Shown here: positions 13,662 through 58,462 of the stretch, piece after piece
Layout of the letters: each line of letters begins with the position of its first letter
How positions within the stretch are numbered: the first letter of the stretch is position 1
From: Octopus vulgaris
Taxonomy: Eukaryota
Direction: 5' to 3'
Assembly: GCA_951406725.2 (NCBI GenBank)
Contig: OX597825.1
Location: 10,602,001 to 10,666,000, forward strand
DNA length: 64,000 bases
Translations under genes and position numbers: made by a program
The notes under the pieces: generated by a model
Told to the model about the DNA's origin: nothing
What the model saw: the letters and a program-made list of their open reading frames with translations, nothing else
The model's database searches: none

Positions 13662-14310
13662 GCGTATAGTTTTTCTTAATGATGGCACTTGAAGTAGCTA
13701 AAGCTATAAATAATACTTCCTATTAAAGACACAAACCCTGTTGGGAGAGAGCTGGTCACTTGAAGACCAACCTTGTTCAGGGCGACCGTTGACCTCCTCA
13801 ACGAATGAAAACATCACCAAAATTCATGAACTTGTCTTGGAGAACCGTCACCGAACAACTGAAGAACGTGTCGATATGATTGGTGTGTCCTGGAGCTCCT
13901 GCCAACGAATTTTGAACGAAGAACTGCGAGTGAAAAGAGTTGCAGCAAAATGTGTGCCTCGCTCGCTCATGGAAGATCAAAAGCAGTCACAACTGAACGC
14001 GTGTCCTCAACTGAAAGAACAGTTGGAAGTTGATCCGGATCTTTTTCTGGAGGTCATCACTAGCGACGAAAGCTGGTGATACAGAATTTGCAGATGTAGA
14101 AGAGGTGAAGAAAAAAACGATGGAGGCATTAAAGAGCATCACTTCACAAGAGATCCAGGATTACTTCGAATAGTGGAAAATGCATCTGGACCAATGCATT
14201 GCTTTAAATGGAGAATGCTTTGAAGGGGATAAAAATGTAAACATTTAAAAGTAAGTGAATAAAATAATATTGCAGAATTCCGGTTTCTTTTGGGTATCCG
14301 CTCGAACACT
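13395..14310 (+). mobile_element. Decayed mariner transposon pieces (internally deleted transposase)
   Basis: ORF 13741-14079 has SGRP, CVPRSL (WVP(R/H)L-like) and ITSDESW. It jumps directly to C-terminal RFADVEEV...CIALNGECFEG. Mariner-like ends occur at ~13395 (TACGAAGGGG) and ~14310. Confidence 0.8.
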
Positions 14311-16641: not shown

Positions 16642-16952
16642 GCCAGGAAGTCCTCGGAATTTTCCAGAAAGTCTCATCCTCAGAACTTTCCAGGATGTCT
16701 CATCCTCGTGATATTTCCAGGAAACCCTCGGAATATTCCAGGAAGTCATGGAAATTTTCCAGTAAGATCCATCCTCGGAACTTTCCAGGAAGTCTCGTTC
16801 TCGGAACTTTCCGGGTGCGCTTGGAATTTTCCAGGAAGTCTCATTCTCGGAACTTTCCGGGAGGTCTTTGGAATGTTCTACGAAGTCTCATCCTCGGAAA
16901 TTTTCAGGAAGTCTCTCATCCTCGGAATTTTCCGGGAATCACATCCTCGGAA
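16642..16952. repeat. Minisatellite, ~12-13 diverged units of 22-27 bp (consensus ccaggaagtctcatcctcggaacttt)
   Basis: Units read directly from the sequence. Confidence 0.85.
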
Positions 16953-17325
16953 CAGACAAACGGATTAAGTCGATTATATCGGCCCCAGTGCGTAACTGGT
17001 ACTTATTTAATCTACCCCGAAAGGATGAAAGGCAAAGTCGACCTCGGCAGAATTTGAACTCAGAACGTAGCGGCAGACCGGTAGACGAAATACCTGTTTC
17101 TTTACTACCCACAAGGGGCTAAACACAGAGGGCACAAACAAGGACAGACAAACGGATTAAGTCGATTACATCGACCCCAGTGCGTAACTGGTACTTAATT
17201 TATCGACCCCGAAAGGATGAAAGGCAAAGTCGACCTCGGCGAAATTTGAACTCAGAACGTAAAGGCAGACGAAATAAGGTTACGCATTTCGCCCGGCGTG
17301 CTAACGATTCTGCCAGCTCGCCGCC
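16950..17325 (-). mobile_element. SINE family A dimer
   Basis: Two tandem bodies with one head. Confidence 0.8.
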
Positions 17326-20929: not shown

Positions 20930-21662
20930 AGGCCAAAAATTTCGGGGTGGTAGAGCTAAGTCGATTACATCGACCCCAGAATTCAGCTGGTATTTATTTC
21001 ATCGACCCCGAAAGCATGAAAGGCAAAGTCGACCTCGGCGGAATTTGAACTCAGAATGTAAAGACAGACGAAATACCTATTTCTTTACTATCCACAAGGA
21101 GTTAAACACAGCGAGGACAAACGGATTAAGTCGATTATATCGACCCCAGTGCGTAACTGGTACTTATTTAGTCGACCCCGAAAGGATGAAATGCAAAGTC
21201 GACCTCGGCGGAATTTGAATTCAGAACGTAACGGCAGACGAAATACCTATTTCTTTACTACCCACAAGGGGCTAAACACAGAGAGGACAAACAAGGACAG
21301 ACAAACGAATTAAGTCGATTGTATCGACCCCAGTGCGTAACTGATACTTAATTTATCGACCCCGAAAGGATGAAAGACAAAGTCGGCCCCGACGGAATTT
21401 GAACTCAGAACGTAACGGCAGACGAAATACCTATTTATTTACTACCCACAAGGGGCTAAACACAGAGAGGACAAACAAGGACAGACAAACGAATTAAGTC
21501 GATTGTATCGACCCCAGTGCGTAACTGATACTTAATTTATCGACCCCGAAAGGATGAAAGACAAAGTCGGCCCCGACGGAATTTGAACTCAGAACGTAAC
21601 GGCAGACGAAATACCGCTAAGCATTTCGCCCGGCGTGCTAACGTTTCTGCTAGCTCGCCACC
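20930..21662 (-). mobile_element. SINE family A tandem multimer (~4 units of ~180 bp, one head)
   Basis: Units are joined at gaaatac|ctattt. The last two units share diagnostic mutations. Confidence 0.85.
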
Positions 21663-29861: not shown

Positions 29862-30235
29862 TGTGTGTGTGTTTATTGATGTTTAGTTTTATATTCTGTT
29901 GTTATAAAAACAATTTTACTTTTATCTGATGGGTTACGCTATACTTTTATAGAGTACAAATTTATTATTCTGATACAAGAATGCTGTTGAGAGTGACTTC
30001 GGAGTTTCGGCCAGCTAGGCCGTGTCCGACGATGGCTTAGCTGACCGAAACTTCGAAGTTGCTTTCAACCTGTCGACAACATTCTTGTATTAGGAGTATA
30101 TACATATATATGTATATATGTATTCATACAACAATATATATATATATATTCATACAACCAACATGCGTTTTTTCCTGATTCTCTTTTTCGTCTCTTTCTA
30201 TTCCTTCTTTTCCAAAATTTTCCTGGACTTTCCTC

Positions 30236-30274
30236 GAGCATCTGATAAAGGACTATGTCCGAAACGTTATGTTT
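30236..30274 (+). ncRNA. Minimal hammerhead-like fold (G8A variant, probably inactive)
   Basis: GAGCAT-CTGATAA-A-GGAC(tat)GTCC-GAAAC-GTT-ATGTTT. Stem I pairs with two G-U wobbles. Confidence 0.5.
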
Positions 30275-30405
30275 TCCCCCTATAACTTTTATTCTGACAT
30301 ATTTTTCCTTCTTTCAGCATCAACCTACTATTAACTGTGATCCTAAGAATTTTGCAGTTTTTATTATTTGTATTTACTGTATTGTATGAATACATACATA
30401 CATAA

Positions 30406-30475
<70 letters not shown>

Positions 30476-30680
30476 GTATGTGAGTGCTGCATGCGTGTGT
30501 GTGTGTGTGTGTGTGTAACTAGCAGTTTCAAATCCGGATAAGAATAACTCTGAGCCGTTATCAAATCACATCGTTCATCTTTTGTGATAGGAATCAAAAC
30601 ATCTTGACAGCTATTTTGACATCTGTTATGAGAGACGAACGTTGCGTTGACGATGTGTTCTTGCAGAAATTTGTGGTTGC

Positions 30681-31244
30681 ATGGTAAGTAGCTTGCTTCC
30701 CTACCACATGGTTCCGGGTTCAGTCCCACTGCTTGGAACCTTGGACAAGTGTCGTCTGCTATAGCTTCGGGTCGACCAAAGTTTTGTGAGTGGATTTGGT
30801 AGACGGAAACTGAAAGAAGCCCGTCGTATTTATACATATACATGTATATATTTGTGTGTGTGTGTGTGTCTTTGTGTGTATAGTTATCCCTCCTCCCACC
30901 TCACCATTGCTTAACAACCAATGTTGGTGTGTTTACGTCCCAGTAACTTAGCGGTTCGGCAAAAGACCCAATAGAATAAGTACTCGGCGTACAAAGTCCT
31001 GAGTTCGATTTCTTCGACTAAAAAACCTTTAAGGCGGTACTACAGCATGGGTGCAGCCAAATGACTAAAACAAGTAAAACAATTAAAGAATTAAAGAAAA
31101 CCCAAGGATCGAATTAAAGCTTGGCGGTTCGGCAGAAGGGAGCGATAAAATAAGTACCAGGCTTTAAAAAGGTTGATTTGTTTGACTAAACCTGTCAAGG
31201 CGATGCCCCAGCATGACCGTAGTCCAACGAATGACAACAAGTAA

Positions 31245-31250
<6 letters not shown>
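30681..31250 (+). mobile_element. SINE family B plus a second 3' fragment
   Basis: Core and tail motifs. The tail segment is repeated at ~31123-31250. Confidence 0.75.
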
Positions 31251-31319
<69 letters not shown>

Positions 31320-31693
31320 TGCTTTGTGAACCCTGCATTTATGAATTACGAGTTTTTGTCATGGCCACAACATAACAGCATCCATGCTAGAATCGGAACC
31401 TGCGGCATCTCGGCTGTTATTCTGCTATTTATTATAGTGGCTGGACTTTCTACACCCACTCACCATAGAGATATTGCCTCTGCAGTGATATCACAAATAA
31501 CTAATGTCTACGGCAAGAGTTAATCATATCTCGGCATAATTTATTGATATGTTTAACCCGATAACAGACCATGATTCTTTCTTTATTCTACTTCTTCCAA
31601 TTATAGAAATTCCCTCTCTCACACACATATATATACGTACACGTATATATACATATATTCATATATGTATATATATATATATATATATATGTA

Positions 31694-31734
<41 letters not shown>

Positions 31735-31744
31735 ATATTGATAT

Positions 31745-31786
<42 letters not shown>

Positions 31787-31824
31787 ATATCAATATCAAT
31801 ATATATTATATATATATATATATG

Positions 31825-31875
<51 letters not shown>

Positions 31876-31879
31876 CAAT

Positions 31880-32033
<154 letters not shown>

Positions 32034-32288
32034 TGTAAGTATGTATGTGCTGTGGCTGCTTCGAAGCGCGATGTGGCGTTCGTGCAACGCCAGACAAGTA
32101 ATCAACACGAATAGACTTGTTTGGTGTCAGAGGAGCTTATTTATCACTGCGTCTGTCTCAAGAAAATGATCATAATAATATTCGAATGGTAATAATAATG
32201 ATGATGATATAACAATGTAAACGGGAACTCTCTATTCTTAAATGACTAATTGCATACGTGCATACATCGTACATAAATACATATATAC

Positions 32289-32328
<40 letters not shown>

Positions 32329-32396
32329 ATTTTTTGCGTAATGAGATAATAAAAAAACCAAGGCTGTGTAGATATTAGAGCATTTATAGATAGAAG

Positions 32397-32448
32397 GTCT
32401 TACAGCTGTTTCCAGGATATTTATTAATTATATCCTTTCATCGGAGAC
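32397..32448 (-). ncRNA. Minimal type I hammerhead fold
   Basis: Minus strand reads GTCT-CCGATGA-A-AGGATAT(aattaataa)ATATCCT-G-GAAAC-AGCT-GTA-AGAC, with a palindromic stem III (ACAGCTGT). It lies ~70 bp from a (TA)n tract. Confidence 0.65.
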
Positions 32449-33535
32449 GGTGTGAGAGGATGGTTAAGTAATAATTAATTTTGATAGGATACAAAATAGA
32501 GAGTGAGGTGGAGGAAAGAAAATAGATGTGAGATATGTAGGGATATTGAATTTGTAGATCCATTTTTTTAGACAGAATGGTATATATGTAAGAGAAAAAT
32601 ATACCTTATGAGAAAAAATCCAACAGTATATAAAATACATACATACATACATATATGATATAAATATATATATATATAGTTTATAATACATATGTATGTA
32701 TATGTATATGCATGAGTGTATGTATGAATGTATGTGCGTGTTTGTGTGTTCGTGTGTGTATAAAGAGATACACATATACGTACGTAAATACACGTACGTA
32801 TATACACGTGTTAGTATTTCGTTAATATAGAGCTTATCGTTGAATTGTTCCTGAGGGACTGAACATGAAAATTATTTCAAACTATTTGGAAAGAGATAAA
32901 GATGAGAGAGAGGAAGAAGGAGAAACTGAGAGAGCTATTATATATACTTATTGAGAGAGAGAGGGGGGAGTTCATATAACAGTAGAATTGAAGAAAAAGT
33001 TTGAGTGTCAGACAGAATAGTAAACTTTCAGTTAAGTTGTGGGGCTAACGTACTAATGTAGTGAGCAAAAGAAGTGTTATGAATTAATATTATAGCCATA
33101 ATGAGAAGGATTGTCATAAGCGTTAATGATTATTTTTGACCAGAAAGGCAAGGGAGACAATTCTGATATTCAAATTGTTCGATCTCCTACATTTTAACTC
33201 CTAAAAGGACTTTGATGTTTACCTTCCAACATTGTGTCGATTAAATAATTACTAGTTTAGTAATTGGTCAGATTTAACCTAGTTTTTTTTTAACAATTTT
33301 AGAAATAAATATTATTATTTCTAATGTTCAGAATTCGCGGCATTTACAATGAAACCCGTATATTAACAATAGACCAGCGTTGACTCAATTTTAATCTCCT
33401 TTGTGTAGTGGCGCTGGATTGCTTCAAGTCCGCCACCAGCAGCCAAAACTTGATTCTAAAACCACATCAAATGTGGTTTTAGAGTCAAGTTTTGGCTACT
33501 ATTTCCAGCGTGGAGGTATCTCTTAGATACCCTAA

Positions 33536-33599
<64 letters not shown>

Positions 33600-33860
33600 T
33601 TGTTGTTGAATGTTGACATTATTTTACTCTCGAACTATTTAGTTACACCTTGGTAACCTTGTTATACGAGTATATATATCCAATATTCATCTGTCAACTT
33701 TTTATATCTGTACATAAATAGACTAAAAAAAAATATCACCTTCATTACTTTGTTAATTTTTTTAAAAATATTATTATTAATATACTATTCTCTTCACTAC
33801 TACACTTCCAAGAACTGTATGTGTGTGTGTATGAACGCGCGTGTGTGTGTGTATACATAC

Positions 33861-33893
<33 letters not shown>

Positions 33894-33933
33894 CGCATGT
33901 ATATATGTGTGTTTATATATCTATACATATATG

Positions 33934-33968
<35 letters not shown>

Positions 33969-34393
33969 GTATGTCTGTATGTATGTAGATATGTATGACT
34001 GTATGTATGCATGTATGTATGCATGTATGTATGTGTGTATGTATGTAAGCATGTATGTATGCTTTAATGTGTGTATATCTGCATGTTTTGTTTGTGATGT
34101 ATATCTATTTCAAATTCCTTCCGTCTTCTCTTTTTTGGTGTCATCGTCTTTCCTTGCCTTTCGTTAGTAACTCGTTATTCATTGTTCAATTTCATTTGAT
34201 ATCATATACATAGGTGTGGTGGGGGGAGGCCTGTGTACGCATGCGTATACATGTGCTTATAAAATGACTTTTATATTTTACCCGCAAAAAGATGGGTGGC
34301 AAGTGACGTATTACTTTATGTCACGAAACTGTCAACATGCATCAGATAATTGATTCTCCATAAATAAATATGTAAATATATATGTATGTGTGC

Positions 34394-34434
<41 letters not shown>

Positions 34435-34455
34435 CATACATACATACATATATAC

Positions 34456-34522
<67 letters not shown>

Positions 34523-34788
34523 CATACATACATATATGCATATATATATATATATATATATATGAGAAATATTGAATTTCTAAATCTCTCGTAGAGACAT
34601 GTACGGTGGTGGGGCGATAGAATGGTTGTATACTGTCAATCTAACAAGAACGTGACAGTAGTGGGTACACCACCGCTGTATAGCCTAGGAAGCATCGAAC
34701 GCCTCCTGATAGCTTTGACACATTTTTCCCTGTGTCCTTATATAGATATACGAAGGGGAGACAAACACCCCCGGCTGCCGGAACTGCA

Positions 34789-34834
34789 TCTAGGGACACC
34801 GTGTTTCAGAATCGTTGTCCTTCATCGGCCTAGA
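34789..34834 (-). ncRNA. Type I hammerhead ribozyme fold, mirror copy of 35022-35067
   Basis: Minus strand reads TCTAGG-CCGATGA-AGGA(caacga)TTCT-GAAAC-ACGGT-GTC-CCTAGA. Stem I is fully Watson-Crick; stem II has one G-U pair. Confidence 0.75.
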
Positions 34835-35021
34835 GTAGCAGACACCGGTCAGCTGGTGATATTTGCATCGACTTCGTAATTGTATATATCTATATTCAGT
34901 GAAGTTTATTTAGAAATTCAATATTTCTTATTTTGATAATCAGTGAATAAACTTCAATGAATATATATATATACAATTACGAAGTCGATGCAAATATCAC
35001 CAGCTGACCGGTGTCTGCTAC

Positions 35022-35067
35022 TCTAGGCCGATGAAGGACAACGATCCTGAAACACGGTGTCTCTAGA
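35022..35067 (+). ncRNA. Type I hammerhead ribozyme fold (U4C core variant, GUC cleavage triplet)
   Basis: TCTAGG-CCGATGA-AGGA(caacga)TCCT-GAAAC-ACGGT-GTC-TCTAGA. Stems I, II and III all pair. Predicted cut is after 35061. Confidence 0.75.
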
Positions 35068-35233
35068 TGCAGTTCCGGCAGCCGGGGGTGTTTGTCTCAC
35101 CTTCGTATATGTATATAAGGACACAGGGAAAAAATGTGTCAAAGCTATCAGGAGGCGTTCGATGCTTCCTAGGGCTATACAGCGGTGGTGTACCCCCTAC
35201 TGTCACGTTCTTGTTAGATTGACAGTATACAAC

Positions 35234-35283
<50 letters not shown>

Positions 35284-36662
35284 CAGAAGTAACAGAGTAA
35301 CTAACTCAAGGTCCAAAAGTTTCGTGTGTTAGCGCTTACCAAATTAGTGCCAATGCACTTGAGTCACTCTTTTACTTCTACTAAATATAAATAAAACCAT
35401 AATTATAGGCTGACATGCTCCATTCTGAAACCCACAGACGTACCATCTCCTGTAGATACTTCCAAACTCTACTACAACGGCCCCACTCTGCTTTTCCGAA
35501 TTTTTCTAATCTTGAGCATCATTCACATAAAGACTCCTGATTCACTTGTCGCTCCTCTTCCTCTTCCGCCTCCTGCACCCCTCATTATCCTCTTCCTAAG
35601 ATCCAACCCAGACCACTACCTTCCGGAACGTAACGGGCCCTCTCTAATTACCTCCCTTGCGCGTGTTTCTCCTGCGTTCGTCGAATGTTAATGTTTGAAA
35701 AGATTAATGTCGTTGGCAGAAACACACAGCAGGAAATTGAGGACCAGCAAAGTTGATAACGAACAACATTTATACATCTACATTTATAACACAAACAATA
35801 AGAACAATAACTGCTAGGACTAAAAATACTAGCTGTACCACCACCACTACCACCACCATTACTGTAACGATAAGGATTTCTTCGAAACAAGGACCAGACA
35901 TTTAGAGGAAAGGTTATAATTGATTAAATGGAAATGAATATATAATATTTGTTTGAATATAATTATATCGATTGTGGAATGATGGGAAATCTGAACGTAA
36001 AGGGGCGGAAGTCAAAAGGTTAAGGCAAACCATAATCCTTACTACATCTGTGATGTTTTCTTATAATTCTTTTTACAACAATAATAATTTCTATCATAGG
36101 AACAAAGCTGCTCATATTCAAAAGTAGTAATTTTTGACTCCGACGGGATTTGAATTTAGAATTTAAGGAGACGTTATTAAATATCATAAGATATTAAATA
36201 TCATAAGAGATATCATTCCAGTTGTAGAATGACAAAATGCTTCACAGTACGGACGCTTGAAGAAGGCATCTCAAAGATTTTTTTTGAAATGGAAAATCCT
36301 TCAAGCAACCAAAACTTGAAGGAAAGTACATTGTAAGAAACTCTGAGTTGCATAAAAAAGTAGAGAGTAAGCCTGATACAGCCATACAAGAGAGTATGAT
36401 CGTTCAATGAATATCTATGACCCCCGTAGGTACTCGGGTTTGATGAGCAACAACAACAACAACTGTAACAAACAACAAACAAAAACAGCAGCAACAAGCG
36501 CTTGTATCATTCATTTTCACAGGAAGAAGAGGAAGAAGTGGAGGAGGGAGGAGGAGGAGGAGGAGAAGAAGAAGAAGAAGAAGAAGAAGAAGAAGAAGAA
36601 GAGCAGGAGGAGGAGGAAAAGAAAGAAGAACAAGAGCTTAGAGGCCTGAAGAAAAGACGATA

Positions 36663-36730
<68 letters not shown>

Positions 36731-36877
36731 AGAAGAAGAAGAAGAAGAAGAAGAAGGACAGATGATAATGAGAAAGAAGGGGTTAGTGTTGTTTTTAAGG
36801 AAAACCTTGTCATCCCGTCTTTTCTTACATTATTATCATTATCATTATTATTATTATCATCATTATTATTATTATCA

Positions 36878-36941
<64 letters not shown>

Positions 36942-37958
36942 CATCATTACAGTTGTTATTGCAGATCAAAATTGGTAACTTGTTAAGCTCTCAGGTATAG
37001 ACTCGCTGTCTATACTGAACGACGTGGGTTTGGTGGGGGAAATAGGATTCCAGCATGAAAAGTACACCAAAGTAGAACTGATACCACCATGCAGAAACTA
37101 AGGTCATTGAATTTATGTTAATCCGAGTTTCTCTGCTTCATTAGATATTCTGTGAAACGTAAAAATACTCACTGTAATCCTGAAGATCACTCATCTAAAC
37201 TAGATTAGATTTGCGGCTTTCAACTTGATTATCTCCCTTCCTTTCTACCTCTCTACATTTCTATCTTTCTCTCCTTCTTGCTGTCTTTCTATATAGACTT
37301 CATTTTCTTCCTCTCTTCCTTTCTTTCTTCTTTCATTTTTTTTCTTTTTTGCCTGTCTTTCTTTTCTTTGAATTTTTCTTTCTTCTTCTTTCTTGGTTTT
37401 TCTTCCGTTCTTCTTTGTCTTTTTTTCTTTCTTCTTCTTTCGACAAACAAGCAAACAAACAAACAAGGAAAGCGTAAACGAACAAATGTTGATGGGGGGG
37501 GGGAGAGAAAACGGGATAAAAAAAGGGTGAGTCAAGGACGAAAATACATCAAAAGAAAGAAAAGAAAAAGAAGTATTTAAAAAAAGAAGAAGAAAAGCAA
37601 AGATGATGACAAGAAAGAGAAAGATGGCAGAAAAAGACAGAAAGAATATATAGAAGAAAAGGGAAAGAAAACGAGAGAGAAAATAATAGAAGACAAACAG
37701 AGAGAGAAGGAAAAGGAACTAGAGGAAGGGGAGGAGGGGCAAGAAGAGGCGGACGACGAAGAGGAAGAGGAGGATGACGATGATAGAATGGAAGTTGGAA
37801 AATAAGAGCGATTACAAGGTTACAAGTTTAATTACAATTCTAAGACATCAAAAGAAGAACACCTGTGGTCGAAGAATTCAAACGGATCACATCTAAATTG
37901 CTTATTTGTTTTCTGTTCCTTTTTTTGTTGTTTTTGTTTTGCTATTTTTATCTTTTGT

Positions 37959-37989
<31 letters not shown>

Positions 37990-38307
37990 GAACTTGTTTC
38001 CGTGGAACAAATAAAATTACAACGGATTATGAAAGTCAAGCGAATAGAACACTCGTCAGTTATGCAGTGCTCTCATCACATCAACGGGTGTAGATGCGGA
38101 GAGGTAATGAAGAGTTGCTCTCAGCCCCCCCCCCCCCCCCGATAATTTGATTTCAACAAGATCAGGCATTTGAAACACAAACAATTCACAAATTGAGAAT
38201 ACGCTAGTTTCTCGTAAGAAAGACGAAATTACGGAGCCCTTCACACACCAATGAAACTACTCCTTACTAATTCGATTTCAACAATATTTACTGGGCCTTT
38301 AAAATGT

Positions 38308-38610
38308 GGAAGCACTCCGTCGGTCACGACGACGAGGGTTCCGGTTGATCCGATCAACGGAACAGCCTGCTCGTGAAATTAACGTGTAAGTGGCTGAGCA
38401 CTCCACAGACACGTGCACTCTTAACGTAATTCTCGGGGATATTCAGCGTGACACAGAGACTGACAAGGCTGGCCCTTTGAAATACTGGTACAACAGAAAC
38501 AGGAAGTAAGAGTGAGAGAAAGTTGTGGTGAAAGAGTACAGCAGGGATCACCACCATCCCCTGCCGGAGCCTCGTGGAGCTTTATGGCGTTTTCGCTCAA
38601 TAAACACTCA
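38308..38610 (-). mobile_element. SINE family C lacking its head
   Basis: Near-identical to 17803-18105. Confidence 0.85.
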
Positions 38611-40370
38611 CGAGGGACATATTCATACGGCACATAATGTTTTCACCTCAATAGACGTCATTGATTGGTTGAAATTGCAGAAATTGAAGAAAAAAAAACA
38701 ACAAATATCTTACAAGCTATAGAATTTTCTCAATAAAGCCAAGAGAAAAAGATATTTTATAAACACATTCTGCCAGTATACGAAGTTTAAAAGTGTTTAG
38801 TTACGTGGAAATAATTTTTTAAAAACTGCCGGTCAAACCGAAAAGATCCCAACGTATGGGCGTCGGAGTTCGTGGCTTCAATCTTAGTAGACTTGTACAT
38901 CTCAGTAGGACATACAGCGGTCTAGCATTACTTCTGGTTTGATGTACAAGAAGGAAGGAATCTAACATCATAAACCAATGAAGCACTCATCAATTTTATA
39001 ATGTTATTGCTGTTTGCATAATAAATTAGCATGCCGTATCTATTTGTGATTATTCCGTTCAAAGTAATTTATGTTGGCATGTACCCAGTACAGCAGCAAA
39101 TTACAGCTTATAAATAAGACGAAACTCCGGTTGGTGCCGTATCAATTCAGCTATCCAACTCTCGTTAATATGAATTAGGTTCTTTAAATCAATATGCTAC
39201 ACTTGTCTTAAAGTTTTCGACAACAAAATATAATTAAATTAGGTTCTCTTTATGTCTTTGTTTTTGCTTTTTGTTTTTACCGTAGAATTAAAAGGCAATA
39301 GACACATTTAGTTAAGCAAAGAGAAAGTTTGTGTATGAGAACGAAAAATAACGTGATTCTCCAATCGCCTTCCAAAGGCTATTAAATGATATCACTGATA
39401 TGTAATGTTTATACAGCAGGCCTTTGGTTAACAAGGTTAATTTTGATATTAAATTTTGTGAACTAACCGGATGTGATGTCATTACATTCGGTGTGACGTA
39501 AAGAAATGGTGGTTTCGTGATCTAATTCAGTTGAATTCAAATCAAATCACGAAAGAAAGATTCGGATTAAGCTTGGACTGGGAATCGAAATCATCATTAA
39601 AACTCGATGATTTCTGATGCGCGAGTCGTTGCTCAACCCTTGTTGCGCAGACATATATTCTTTTCTACTCTAGGTACAAGGCCCGAAATTTTGAGGGAGG
39701 GGGCCCAGTCGATTAGTATGCAACTGGTACTTAATTTATCGACCCCGAAAGGATGAAAGGCAAAGTCGCACTGGGGTCGATCTAATCGACTGACCCTCTC
39801 CCCCAAAATTTCGGGCCTTGTGTCTAAAGTAGAAAAGAATATATGTGTCTCGTAAGGCGGCGAGCTGGCAGAAGCGTTAGCACGCCGGGCGAAATGTTTA
39901 GTAGCATTTCGTCCGTCTTTACGTTCTAAGTTCGAATACTACCGAGGGGCGACTTTGCCTTTCATGATTAATAAAATAAATAAATAAATACCAGATGAGC
40001 ACTGAGATCGATGTAATCGAATTGCTCCATCTCACGAACTTGCTGGCCTTGTGCCAAAATTTAAAACTAAAAATGTTTCGTTTTAAATTTTTTCCATACT
40101 TAAAATACAAAAACTATGAATAAATAACATAGCAGGAATACAGAATATTTTATTGTTTTGCGGTTTATTTCGTTTTGCTCTTCTTCATTAATTCCGATTT
40201 TACGTATATTTAACCACATTAAACTGAAATAATAAACAAATGAATTGAATAATGAATAGACAAATCATTTTCTAAATTCATCGATTTAAAACTTTTATCT
40301 ATTCTACGAATCTTAATTCATAAATTTTAAAGCTTAAGTTATTCATTTAGTAACAAACTCAATTTGTTAA

Positions 40371-43188: not shown

Positions 43189-43852
43189 GAGGTCTGATCA
43201 ATAAGTATCCGTACTGTTGCCATAGTAACGAAAGTAAAGCATACAGAGGAAGTTGTCATGGCGATACCCGCTCAGAGGCCTACGCAAGGTTGCAGAAAGC
43301 GTATGGAGAGGAGTGTATGAGCCGCACACACGTGTAGGAGACAAATGTACGAGTGGTTTAGACCTTTCCAAGTAGACCGAAAAAATGTCGATACCATTCG
43401 TGAAGATGTGCAGATTAGTTACGGTTCAGTTCAATCCATTATCACTGAAGATTTGGGTATGAGACACATGTCTGCCAAGTTTGTGCCAAAACTGCTTTCA
43501 GCTGACCAAAAAGACACCCGGGTTTCAGTTGCACAGGATCTCCTTGATTGTGTCGAGAACGATGAAAACTTTTTGAAAACCTTGCATAGGGTCTCTGAGC
43601 AGGTATCGCCAAGCTTTTGGCAAAATTTGATGCAGATTTTCAGCTCAACTTTTCCTGCCATAGTCAATGCGATGATCACACGCTACACACTTTCCTTCCA
43701 AGCACTGCTGTAAACAGCGGAAGTGAGCTAGAACCCTAACCCTTAATGCGCATGCACAGCAGAGTTCGAGGTCAATCTGTGCCGAGCGACTTCACCCTAC
43801 GTACTTTAGCTTCGTTACTATAGCAACAGTCCGGATACTTATTGATCAGACC
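43188..43852. mobile_element. Non-autonomous mariner derivative built from two inverted 5' ends
   Basis: ~55-bp inverted ends ggtctgatcaataagtatcc. The plus strand encodes SAKFVPKLLS transposase fragments. The minus strand encodes the N-terminus MAGKVELKICIKFCQKLGDT. Confidence 0.8.
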
Positions 43853-47335: not shown

Positions 47336-47910
47336 TGCGCTTGCATGTGTATGACTGTGTGTATGACTGTGTGTGTATTTGTGTGTGTATGCATTCATGT
47401 GTGTTTATGTGTGTGCATGTTTATATCGCATTCTTTTATGTCCTATCATTTCTCAATTCAAAAAATATGGAAACAGAGTAAATTTCCATTGAAACAAGTA
47501 TTTTTGCTACAGCATGGCCACATTTCAATGAATGGAACCAATAAAAGACTGAAAGAATAGAAAAGAGCATGCAGTCATAAATTCTAAAGAAAATAAACTA
47601 CTCTCACCAAAATTTCTTTTCAATGAACCTGAAATAATATAATTTTAGAAATAGAGAAAAATATTACACTCCATCTTTTCGCTATAAATTCTTAATTTTT
47701 TTCTTGCACCCAAAGAATGAGAATTATCTCAGATTGTTTGAATTCAAAAGTGAATTAAAGAAAAGTCAAAATGTTATAAAACCATGAATGAAATTCTTTT
47801 AAAACAAATCCTGAACCGAAAATATATAGAAGTTCGTTTTGATAACATGTTTCTACGAATTAATTACGATGTTATATTACTTCTAACATATATTTTTTAT
47901 TCTCTTTCAG

Positions 47911-48622
47911 GTACATTGGAATTATTCACCCGTTTGAAGCACATATTGTGTGTAACCGGAGACGTATCATCTGTGTGATATGCATCGTGTGGTTCATATC
48001 TTTGGTGACGGGTTTACCACCGCTTCTCTTCAACACGGTGATGCACGACAAGTCAAAGGATTCAGTTGGTTTCTGTCGCATGCGATTTCCAACAAATTCC
48101 TTTCTTTATTTCATGATTTATAAATTCGGAGAGTTCTTCCTGTATTATTTCGCTCCCTTACTTTTACAAATGGTTCTTTATTGTATCATTACAAAACAAT
48201 TGTTTCTTGGTAGTGAACATCTACACAGGCCTGTTGTAATGACTTGGACGGAAACCGGAAATCGAACCGAGCGCTCTTCCGATGCCCTTCAAGCGCGAAA
48301 GGGAGTTGTGAAAATGCTCATCATCAGTGTATTGGTCTATTTTATCAGTTACTCACCCATCGAGATTATGCTGTTCTATAAAATGATATCGCCTCATGCG
48401 TTCAAGGACCACTGGTCTTATCACGTAATTGCCATTGTCATCGCTTATGTCAATTCGTCCGCTAACCCCATACTCTACAGCATCTTCAGCCAGAATTTCC
48501 GTCGACGTTTCAACGCCATACTCTGCGGCCATGAAGAGAAAAACCGACACATGACAGCTACCTCAACAAATTCCCGCATGTGGCGCCTCACAAGTCTCAG
48601 GTCAGCTACAACAGAAGTGTGA
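47911..48622 (+). CDS. Terminal coding exon (end of TM3 to C-terminus) of a rhodopsin-family peptide GPCR, trissin-receptor-like
   Basis: Polypyrimidine tract and AG acceptor (tctctttcag|G) at 47910/47911, splitting the R codon of (D/E)RY. Reads YIGIIHPFEAHIVCNRRR, then TM4 Trp, ECL2 Cys, TM5 YFAPLLLQMVLY, TM6 ARKGVVKMLIISVLVYFISYSP, TM7 NSSANPILY and helix 8 FSQNFRRRF. Stop TGA ends at 48622. GPCR class is secure; the subfamily is from motif recall only. Confidence 0.92.
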
Positions 48623-53770: not shown

Positions 53771-53889
53771 TATATGAGGATATTATTGTTTATAATAATA
53801 TCAGTGGAGAGAGAAATCCAAAAGAGGTAGAACCAACAAAAGAACTACGCGACAGTAGAGAACTTCATCATCTTTACAGAGTTACAACT

Positions 53890-54200
53890 CTACATCATAA
53901 GCGATGCATTCGCGCCATTGTTAAACCCAACTTTCGAAACTTGCTTGAAAAAGTTCAGGTGTGTACTGTTGTACCAATTCTTCATGACTACGTTCACCTT
54001 GCCTGAGTCGTCAACTGATTGCCCCCAGCCCCGAAGACTGTTCTTCATGGGGCTGAATAGGTCGATGACGGAAATCTTCAGATACCTACTGTTCTGTAGA
54101 AGAGGAGCCACTGACCACCCAATTGCCATATTTGTCCCCAAAGATGCGTGTTCCCAAAGGGTATGTGGGTCGTTTTCAGATTCTTATTCTTCTTAATGGC
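53890..54200 (-). mobile_element. Highly decayed mariner transposase C-terminal fragment
   Basis: An RPHT-like motif near 54160-54175, and LFSPMKNSLRG...NW....FFKQ, resembling the region after YSPDL. Confidence 0.5.
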
Positions 54201-57959: not shown

Positions 57960-58462
57960 ATTATTTCTTTACTACCCACAAGGGGCTACACACAGAGGGG
58001 ACAACAAGGATGAAAGGCAAAGTCGACCTCGGCGGAATTTGAACTCAGAACGTAGCGGCAGATGAAATACCTATTTCTTTACTACCCACAAGGGGCTAAA
58101 CACGGAGAGGACAGACAAGGACAGACAAACGGATTAAGTCGACCATATCGACCCTAGTGCGTAACTGGTACTTATTTAATCAACTCCGAAAGGATGAAAG
58201 GCAAAGTCGACCTCGGCGGAATTTGAACTCAGAACATAGCGCCAGACGAAATACCTATTTCTTTACTACCCACAAGGGGCTAAAAACAGAAGGGACAAAC
58301 AAGGACAGACAAACGGATTAAGTCGATTATATCGACCCCAGTGCGTAACTGGTAAAGAATGAAAGGCAAAGTCGACCTCGGCGGAATTTGAACTCAGAAC
58401 GTAACGGCAGACGAAATACCGCTAAGCATTTCGCCCGGGGCGCTAACGTTTCTGCCAACTCA
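57960..58462 (-). mobile_element. SINE family A trimer with a 14-bp TSD
   Basis: ctgaccaagaattt occurs at 57946-57959 and 58463-58476. Confidence 0.85.

Follow-up and report, generated by a model that had tools for sequence, protein, structure and literature searches.

A palindrome bearing two predicted hammerhead ribozymes in octopus DNA likely consists of two truncated copies, inserted back to back, of an abundant non-coding Penelope-type repeat

Introduction

When a palindrome carries a predicted ribozyme on each of its strands, is the palindrome itself the functional element, or was it assembled from two copies of an element that is not palindromic? This question is raised by a locus within a 64-kb stretch of octopus DNA, referred to here in its whole length as the window. 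The first-pass annotation of the locus had taken the twin hammerheads and their inverted arms as the element, describing it as young, non-coding and targeted to microsatellites, and had proposed that a read-through transcript might either cleave or be locked in a long hairpin.

Two groups of known elements bear on the question, and the papers on them are cited here for the portions of their text that were consulted. Pairs of hammerheads on opposite strands, 100-700 bp apart, have been described in Schistosoma copies of Penelope-like elements (PLEs; Cervera and de la Pena, 2014, PMC4209133), and the supplement of that paper contains one such pair in a bracovirus PLE. PLEs insert at (TA)n targets and carry an inverted, 5'-truncated copy at their 5' end, together with a tail of 30-40 bp that is frequently confined to one end (Craig et al., 2021, PMC8557442). 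The tail corresponds to the stretch between two internal start sites of reverse transcription that lie in an AC-rich stem-loop, and insertion in vitro does not need hammerhead cleavage (Frangieh et al., 2024, PMC11167929). Non-LTR retrozymes are tandem units of 170-400 nt with canonical type I hammerheads and are expressed as circles (Cervera and de la Pena, 2020, PMC7229834); they have been argued to be non-autonomous PLE derivatives (Li, Clavereau and Pollet, 2026, bioRxiv 10.64898/2026.07.22.740005). Further sources for comparison were PMC6155905 and PMC13282606.

Results

The palindrome measures 625 bp and consists of two inverted arms separated by a short centre and lying between TA arrays, in good agreement with the two ~295-bp arms, the ~620-bp total and the (TA)n embedding given by the first-pass annotation. 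Its parts are as follows, with the evidence in brackets.

34395..34563, no strand: TA/TACA microsatellite, left target flank (repeat scan)
34565..34616, minus strand: optional 3' tail of 52 bp, present on the left copy; 34565 is a frequent 3' terminus of the family (contig ends, depth)
34565..34585, minus strand: final 21 nt of the tail, equal to 34908-34928 of the plus strand, a terminal redundancy (sequence match)
34617..34910, minus strand: left arm (294 bp), a 5'-truncated inverted copy of the repeat unit (arm alignment, contig loose ends)
34908..34910, no strand: inversion junction, a 3-nt microhomology common to both copies (sequence, alignment)
34908..34945, plus strand: 5' part of the right copy (the "spacer"), comprising the last 21 nt of the tail and then upstream sequence native to the repeat (contig depth, joint 34590-34921)
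34946..35241, plus strand: right arm (296 bp), a tail-less copy running straight into (TA)n (sequence, arm alignment)
35239..35282, no strand: (TA)22, right target flank (repeat scan)

When aligned, the arms differ by seven substitutions and two one-base indels in 296 columns, both indels falling in homopolymers. With differences at 3% of columns the locus is only moderately young, and the earlier dating is to be softened to that extent. The ends of the palindrome are asymmetric, with a tail at the left end only, and its centre is non-palindromic. The 22-bp inverted copy of the spacer noticed earlier is real: 34565-34585 matches 34908-34928 at 21/21 positions exactly and at 23/24 when extended. 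No further copy of the repeat was detected in the window by blastn or nhmmer.

Pieces of 34564-34950 are present in 20 of the 24 public sequencing runs listed, which come from 11 studies and carry four organism labels; the best of those listed holds only half of the words of this stretch and is the only one to reach half, and none of the listed runs with family pieces is on record as RNA. From four runs, 2330, 1761, 102 and 800 short contigs (4,993 in total) were aligned to 34564-34960, their depth not being equivalent to copy number. All four runs contain an abundant family with many variant copies. Exact-pattern scans found no locus in viral contigs, metagenome contigs or prokaryote genomes. 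The family was not reported in the titles and abstract openings retrieved on octopus hammerheads, PLE or retrozyme inversions, U4C and Neptune tails; it may already be catalogued in repeat libraries. Short motifs (four plus two) were likewise absent from the Craig et al. (2021) supplement as far as its sequences were readable.

These contigs define the ends of the repeat. Loose ends before 34565, from 29, 27 and 18 contigs in runs X1, X3 and X6, respectively, have an AT-rich consensus with an agreement of about 0.5, and this heterogeneity marks 34565 as a terminus of the family. Depth falls in a step near 34617-34620, the tail bin reaching 0.41-0.69 of the arm-end bin, so many copies stop near 34617. 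Copies of the family thus end mostly at two points, with or without the 52-bp tail, and the locus contains one of each kind, the left copy being tailed and the right tail-less. The supposed inverted copy of the spacer is the 3' end of the repeat family.

The same contigs separate the repeat from the palindrome. Opposite-strand joints occur at four other places (34645/34725, 34726/34765, 34874/34960 and 34899/34956) and three skips at further places also read as inversions, whereas the junction of the palindrome is repeated in no contig among the four runs. Its central junction is spanned by none of them, and the assembly has no independent confirmation there. Contigs with loose ends past 34910 read on into the reverse complement of 34933-34945; therefore, the spacer belongs to the 5' part of the repeat itself, and the left arm is a truncated copy. 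Alleles at 34711, 34748, 34814 and 34867 are present in both arms and are in the minority or absent among the aligned contigs, which suggests a common source lineage for both arms and a single event. The functional unit is not the palindrome: copies of the repeat invert elsewhere, and opposite-strand pairs are among the published by-products of PLEs, so the claim that the twin structure is the element is not supported. It is likely that two truncated copies of an abundant, non-coding element of the Penelope type were inserted back to back.

Each arm nevertheless contains a complete predicted type I hammerhead. A relaxed type I descriptor (stems I, II and III of at least 4, 2 and 2, respectively; C or U at core position 4) matched exactly twice in 64 kb, once per arm and strand and facing outward, as had been claimed; at the observed stem sizes (6/4/3) it gave no match in 3,815,234 shuffled bases. 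The features are the following.

35022..35067, plus strand: predicted type I hammerhead fold of the right arm (descriptor, fold), predicted cut at 35061/35062, C3 at 35028 and C17 at 35061
34789..34834, minus strand: predicted type I hammerhead fold of the left arm with U4C core and a private G-U in stem II (34810), predicted cut at 34795/34794, C3 at 34828 and C17 at 34795
34968..35117, plus strand: predicted imperfect rod of ~150 nt, an extended stem I capped by the hammerhead (z -5.7, 0/60 shuffles; nhmmer self-match E 1e-4)

The layout is a stem I of 6 bp, CCGAUGA, a stem II of 4 bp with a 6-nt loop, GAAA and a near-palindromic stem III. All 24 drawn pairs are canonical, and three helices around the core, a NUH site and an open helix I are present; helix I is predicted to extend via a small internal loop into the rod. 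The core departs from the consensus C3 U4 G5 A6 N7 G8 A9 by U4C in both arms, none of the four runs has a C4 variant reaching 3%, and the predicted helix II opens with A-U. The Rfam hammerhead models that the first-pass annotation had also proposed for checking returned nothing: no family matched 34990-35238 at E<=10, and there was no hammerhead among 129 matches in 30000-40000, where the miRNA matches reflect the hairpin and score below gathering. This miss is probably due to the U4C core. The type I identity stands, whereas kinship with the minimal PLE type does not, as the long helix II, the extra base after A9 and the reduced or missing helix III of minimal hammerheads were not found. The architecture is rather that of canonical retrozymes (helix I of 6 bp, helix II of 4 bp, short palindromic helix III), in which the loop-loop contact nucleotides are putative.

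The predicted folds bear on how such a ribozyme might act. In the monomer, C3-C4-G5 is predicted to pair with loop III, the probability of helix III is 0.00, and the hammerhead fold lies ~9 kcal/mol above the energy minimum. A double-hammerhead fold reaches -55.9 kcal/mol versus -42.4 kcal/mol for two monomer hammerheads, a gain of 13.5, but two monomers in the inactive fold lie a further 5.5 kcal/mol lower, these being energies without tertiary contacts. U4C considerably lowers activity in vitro and still permits viroid infectivity, according to the portion consulted of Perreault et al. (2011, PMC3088659). On these predictions self-cleavage is plausible and would probably depend on dimers. 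Two variable positions lie in the loops. At 34799, some contigs of the family, a minority in each of the four runs, lack one loop III base; helix III then becomes a perfect palindrome of 8 nt, and a dimer would be more stable. At 34814 in loop II, 64-78% of contig depth has a base different from that of both arms.

Within the motif the arms differ only at 35046/34810 and 35062/34794, each a G-C versus G-U change that keeps the pairing, as previously noted. We rejected the argument from these swaps as too weak alone, since a random transition at a paired site preserves the pair in 55% of cases and two such changes would arise with a probability of ~0.3 by chance (0.55 each). Among 35 substitutions listed at 33 sites in the contigs, none lies in the core, and on the hammerhead strand 14/15 transitions at predicted paired sites keep the pairing (0.55 expected, p 0.002), compared with 4/12 on the antisense strand (Fisher p 0.0016). 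The sole transition that breaks a pair, at 34851, has a partner, 34776, that varies in the compensating direction (unphased); transversions, excluded from this count, break five predicted pairs. Given that the reference structure is a prediction from one copy, these figures support, and do not prove, structural conservation on one strand. The asymmetry between strands makes the repeat family a single-polarity unit. The lower variability of the 46-nt motif itself (2/46 versus 31/250 sites, p 0.08) is a weak indication.

The contigs also point to the length of that unit. The 21-nt tail end recurs upstream, depth over 34914-34927 is 0.32, 0.63, 0.85 and 0.54 of that in the next bin in the four runs, where the contigs with two possible placements number only 2, 8, 0 and 3, and a separate joint in run X3 (34590-34921) enters at 34921. 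These observations point to a head-to-tail unit of 334 + 31 = 365 nt. The contigs of the four runs contained no tandem copy, circle or full-length unit, and no joint from the tail end to the upstream sequence was among those listed. Loose ends behind 34910 in X1 (three contigs) and X3 (four) follow the 21-nt piece for no more than 13-16 bases, and therefore some copies have a different upstream sequence. A hypothetical 365-nt circle would be strongly folded (z -5.4, 0/40 shuffles), with the native 346-nt linear strand nearly as structured (z -4.75, 0/60 shuffles).

No coding function was detected in the unit, which has no Pfam match, no long frame and no open frame running from the hammerhead through the tail. 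At 34935-34951, two in-frame stops are followed by AATAAA and could be the end of a relic ORF. Of 251 complex reading frames in the 64-kb window, the 150 longest gave no match to an RT or GIY-YIG family; no ORF-linked copy of the repeat was seen, and no partner PLE was identified.

Discussion

We regard it as fairly probable that the arms represent truncated copies, inverted relative to each other, of an abundant non-coding hammerhead repeat, a non-autonomous PLE in the form of a ~365-nt non-LTR retrozyme, which entered the TA sequence in a single event. The locus has the features of a Penelope-type insertion, namely a tail at one end (52 bp), an inverted 5'-truncated copy and a (TA)n/AT-rich target, and the tail is AC-rich with a predicted 9-bp pairing with the arm; the ORF of an autonomous PLE, encoding RT and GIY-YIG domains, was absent within the 64-kb window. 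The broader reading of the first-pass annotation, a non-coding, microsatellite-associated ribozyme retroelement akin to PLEs and retrozymes, is supported.

The locus could have arisen in the following way. Head-to-tail arrays or circles would be transcribed, and the hammerhead, presumably slow by itself, would probably cut mainly as a tandem dimer and yield monomers, its slowness as a monomer probably reflecting a U4C core that can pair with loop III. A PLE reverse transcriptase/GIY-YIG endonuclease supplied in trans would nick (TA)n, and cDNA synthesis would begin within the RNA, at one or the other of two sites separated by 52 nt, leaving a tail-less right end and a tailed left end. At the TA nick, each start site may have yielded one copy of an RNA longer than the unit, and these truncated cDNAs may then have been joined back to back across the 3-nt microhomology. 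As neither copy has a partner on the same strand and a read-through transcript is predicted to fold as a hairpin of 298 pairs (-555 kcal/mol) that covers the ribozyme, the locus is probably a dead-end by-product, and either inert or a source of dsRNA.

The arms could instead be the pseudo-LTR and tail of an autonomous PLE, both 5'-truncated before the ORF, with the 21-nt duplication left by a partial tandem or a template switch and the palindrome again a by-product. The insertion signature would be identical, the stops and AATAAA at 34935-34951 could mark the end of the missing ORF, a few contigs do have other upstream sequence, and PLE hammerheads are mostly found in solo truncated copies in the consulted portions of Cervera and de la Pena (2014, PMC4209133). 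However, contig depth continues over the upstream 21-nt piece, and the hammerhead is of the wrong kind: as far as the consulted sources go, those of metazoan PLEs are minimal with a long helix II, whereas canonical ones with 6 and 4 bp mark retrozymes. Nor does an open frame run from the hammerhead to the tail, unlike in PAc, whose ORF starts in stem II. We therefore consider this origin rather unlikely, while giving it real weight.

Far less probable are two readings in which the palindrome itself is what has to be explained. If it were a selected unit, either a two-ribozyme switch that cleaves or locks or a MITE-like fold-back element, the integrity of both motifs, the pair-keeping nature of both internal differences and the great stability of the read-through hairpin would follow; but inversion points vary among copies and this junction never recurs in the contigs, conservation is one-stranded, the ends are asymmetric with the tail on one side, chance readily accounts for two pair-keeping changes, and a read-through RNA holds a single sense ribozyme that is predicted to need a dimer. 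Of the earlier read-through proposal, the long hairpin holds as a prediction and the switch is not supported, in view of the one-strand conservation and the other inversion points. We give equally little credence to a fold-back artefact of assembly or amplification from one real copy. Such an artefact would fit a centre that no contig spans, a best run holding only half of the words and homopolymer indels as two of the differences, but the arms differ by seven substitutions, several of which fall where the family itself varies (34745, 34683-34686), the arms end differently around a non-palindromic centre, and inversions are present in other runs.

The preferred reading, a non-autonomous and non-coding repeat, places the octopus family between two described groups, compared here through the consulted portions of the papers. 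Like the animal non-LTR retrozymes, it is non-coding, occurs as scattered monomers, is proposed to be moved by PLEs, and would give an RNA that pairs extensively with itself and carries a hammerhead of canonical type I layout (helix I of 6 bp, helix II of 4 bp, weak palindromic helix III); its putative 365 nt fall within their 170-400 nt, mussel units having 350-390 bp. It differs from them in the U4C core and the A-U that opens helix II, and no tandem array was seen among its contigs. It also has the PLE tail, inversion and TA targeting, which were not found in the consulted descriptions of retrozymes (PMC7229834, 10.64898/2026.07.22.740005). With the pseudo-LTRs of EN+ PLEs it shares a hammerhead near the 3' end, opposite-strand pairs, an inverted 5'-truncated copy, a tail at one end and a (TA)n/AT-rich target (PMC4209133, PMC8557442, PMC11167929), but it has no ORF, its hammerhead is canonical rather than minimal, and its tail is 52 bp compared with the published 30-40 bp. 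MRC1, a non-autonomous PLE of Chlamydomonas (Craig et al., 2021, PMC8557442), is similarly non-coding, pLTR-forming, head-to-tail and PLE-dependent, although it derives from Chlamys elements, most of which are without canonical hammerheads, and uses other microsatellite targets. The same core substitution occurs in a viroid hammerhead cited in Perreault et al. (2011, PMC3088659), whose activity is reduced in vitro yet sufficient in vivo; there it is a variant, whereas here U4C appears fixed in an abundant animal repeat. By analogy, the octopus repeat behaves like a PLE-mobilised retrozyme, with incomplete membership and a core off the consensus.

The palindrome, then, requires no new mechanism. 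The repeat family combines a retrozyme-type ribozyme with PLE-type insertion ends and so offers a substrate for testing whether PLEs mobilise retrozymes by internal initiation. The link between PLEs and retrozymes has so far been argued from co-occurrence and homology. We suggest, only tentatively, that this is an abundant, undescribed retrozyme family of animals that joins all PLE insertion signatures, from the two internal start sites and single tail to the 5' inversion and TA target, to a fixed U4C and dimer-gated cleavage; if so, it would be direct structural evidence for a circular RNA with a canonical hammerhead as the template of a PLE reverse transcriptase. The U4C hammerhead persists in an abundant repeat though it is missed by Rfam and CUGANGA descriptors, and such families may be undercounted.

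Additional features of the window

Several unrelated features were seen in the window. At 33436-33502, a short hairpin-forming stretch has below-threshold matches to several miRNA models and is possibly a small inverted-repeat element. Frames at 13714-14079, 43321-43713 and 53831-54196, which by eye look like decayed mariner-type transposase, had no Pfam match at E 0.001. A degenerate 26/46-bp minisatellite at 16651-16953 has overlapping open frames without a Pfam match. Tandem 184-bp units of a dispersed SINE-like repeat, presumably typical of octopus genomes, occupy 20957-21615 and 58006-58354, and pieces of it recur elsewhere in the window. Finally, an intronless-looking frame of 252 amino acids at 47864-48622 on the plus strand matches the rhodopsin-family GPCRs (PF00001, E 1.6e-26).
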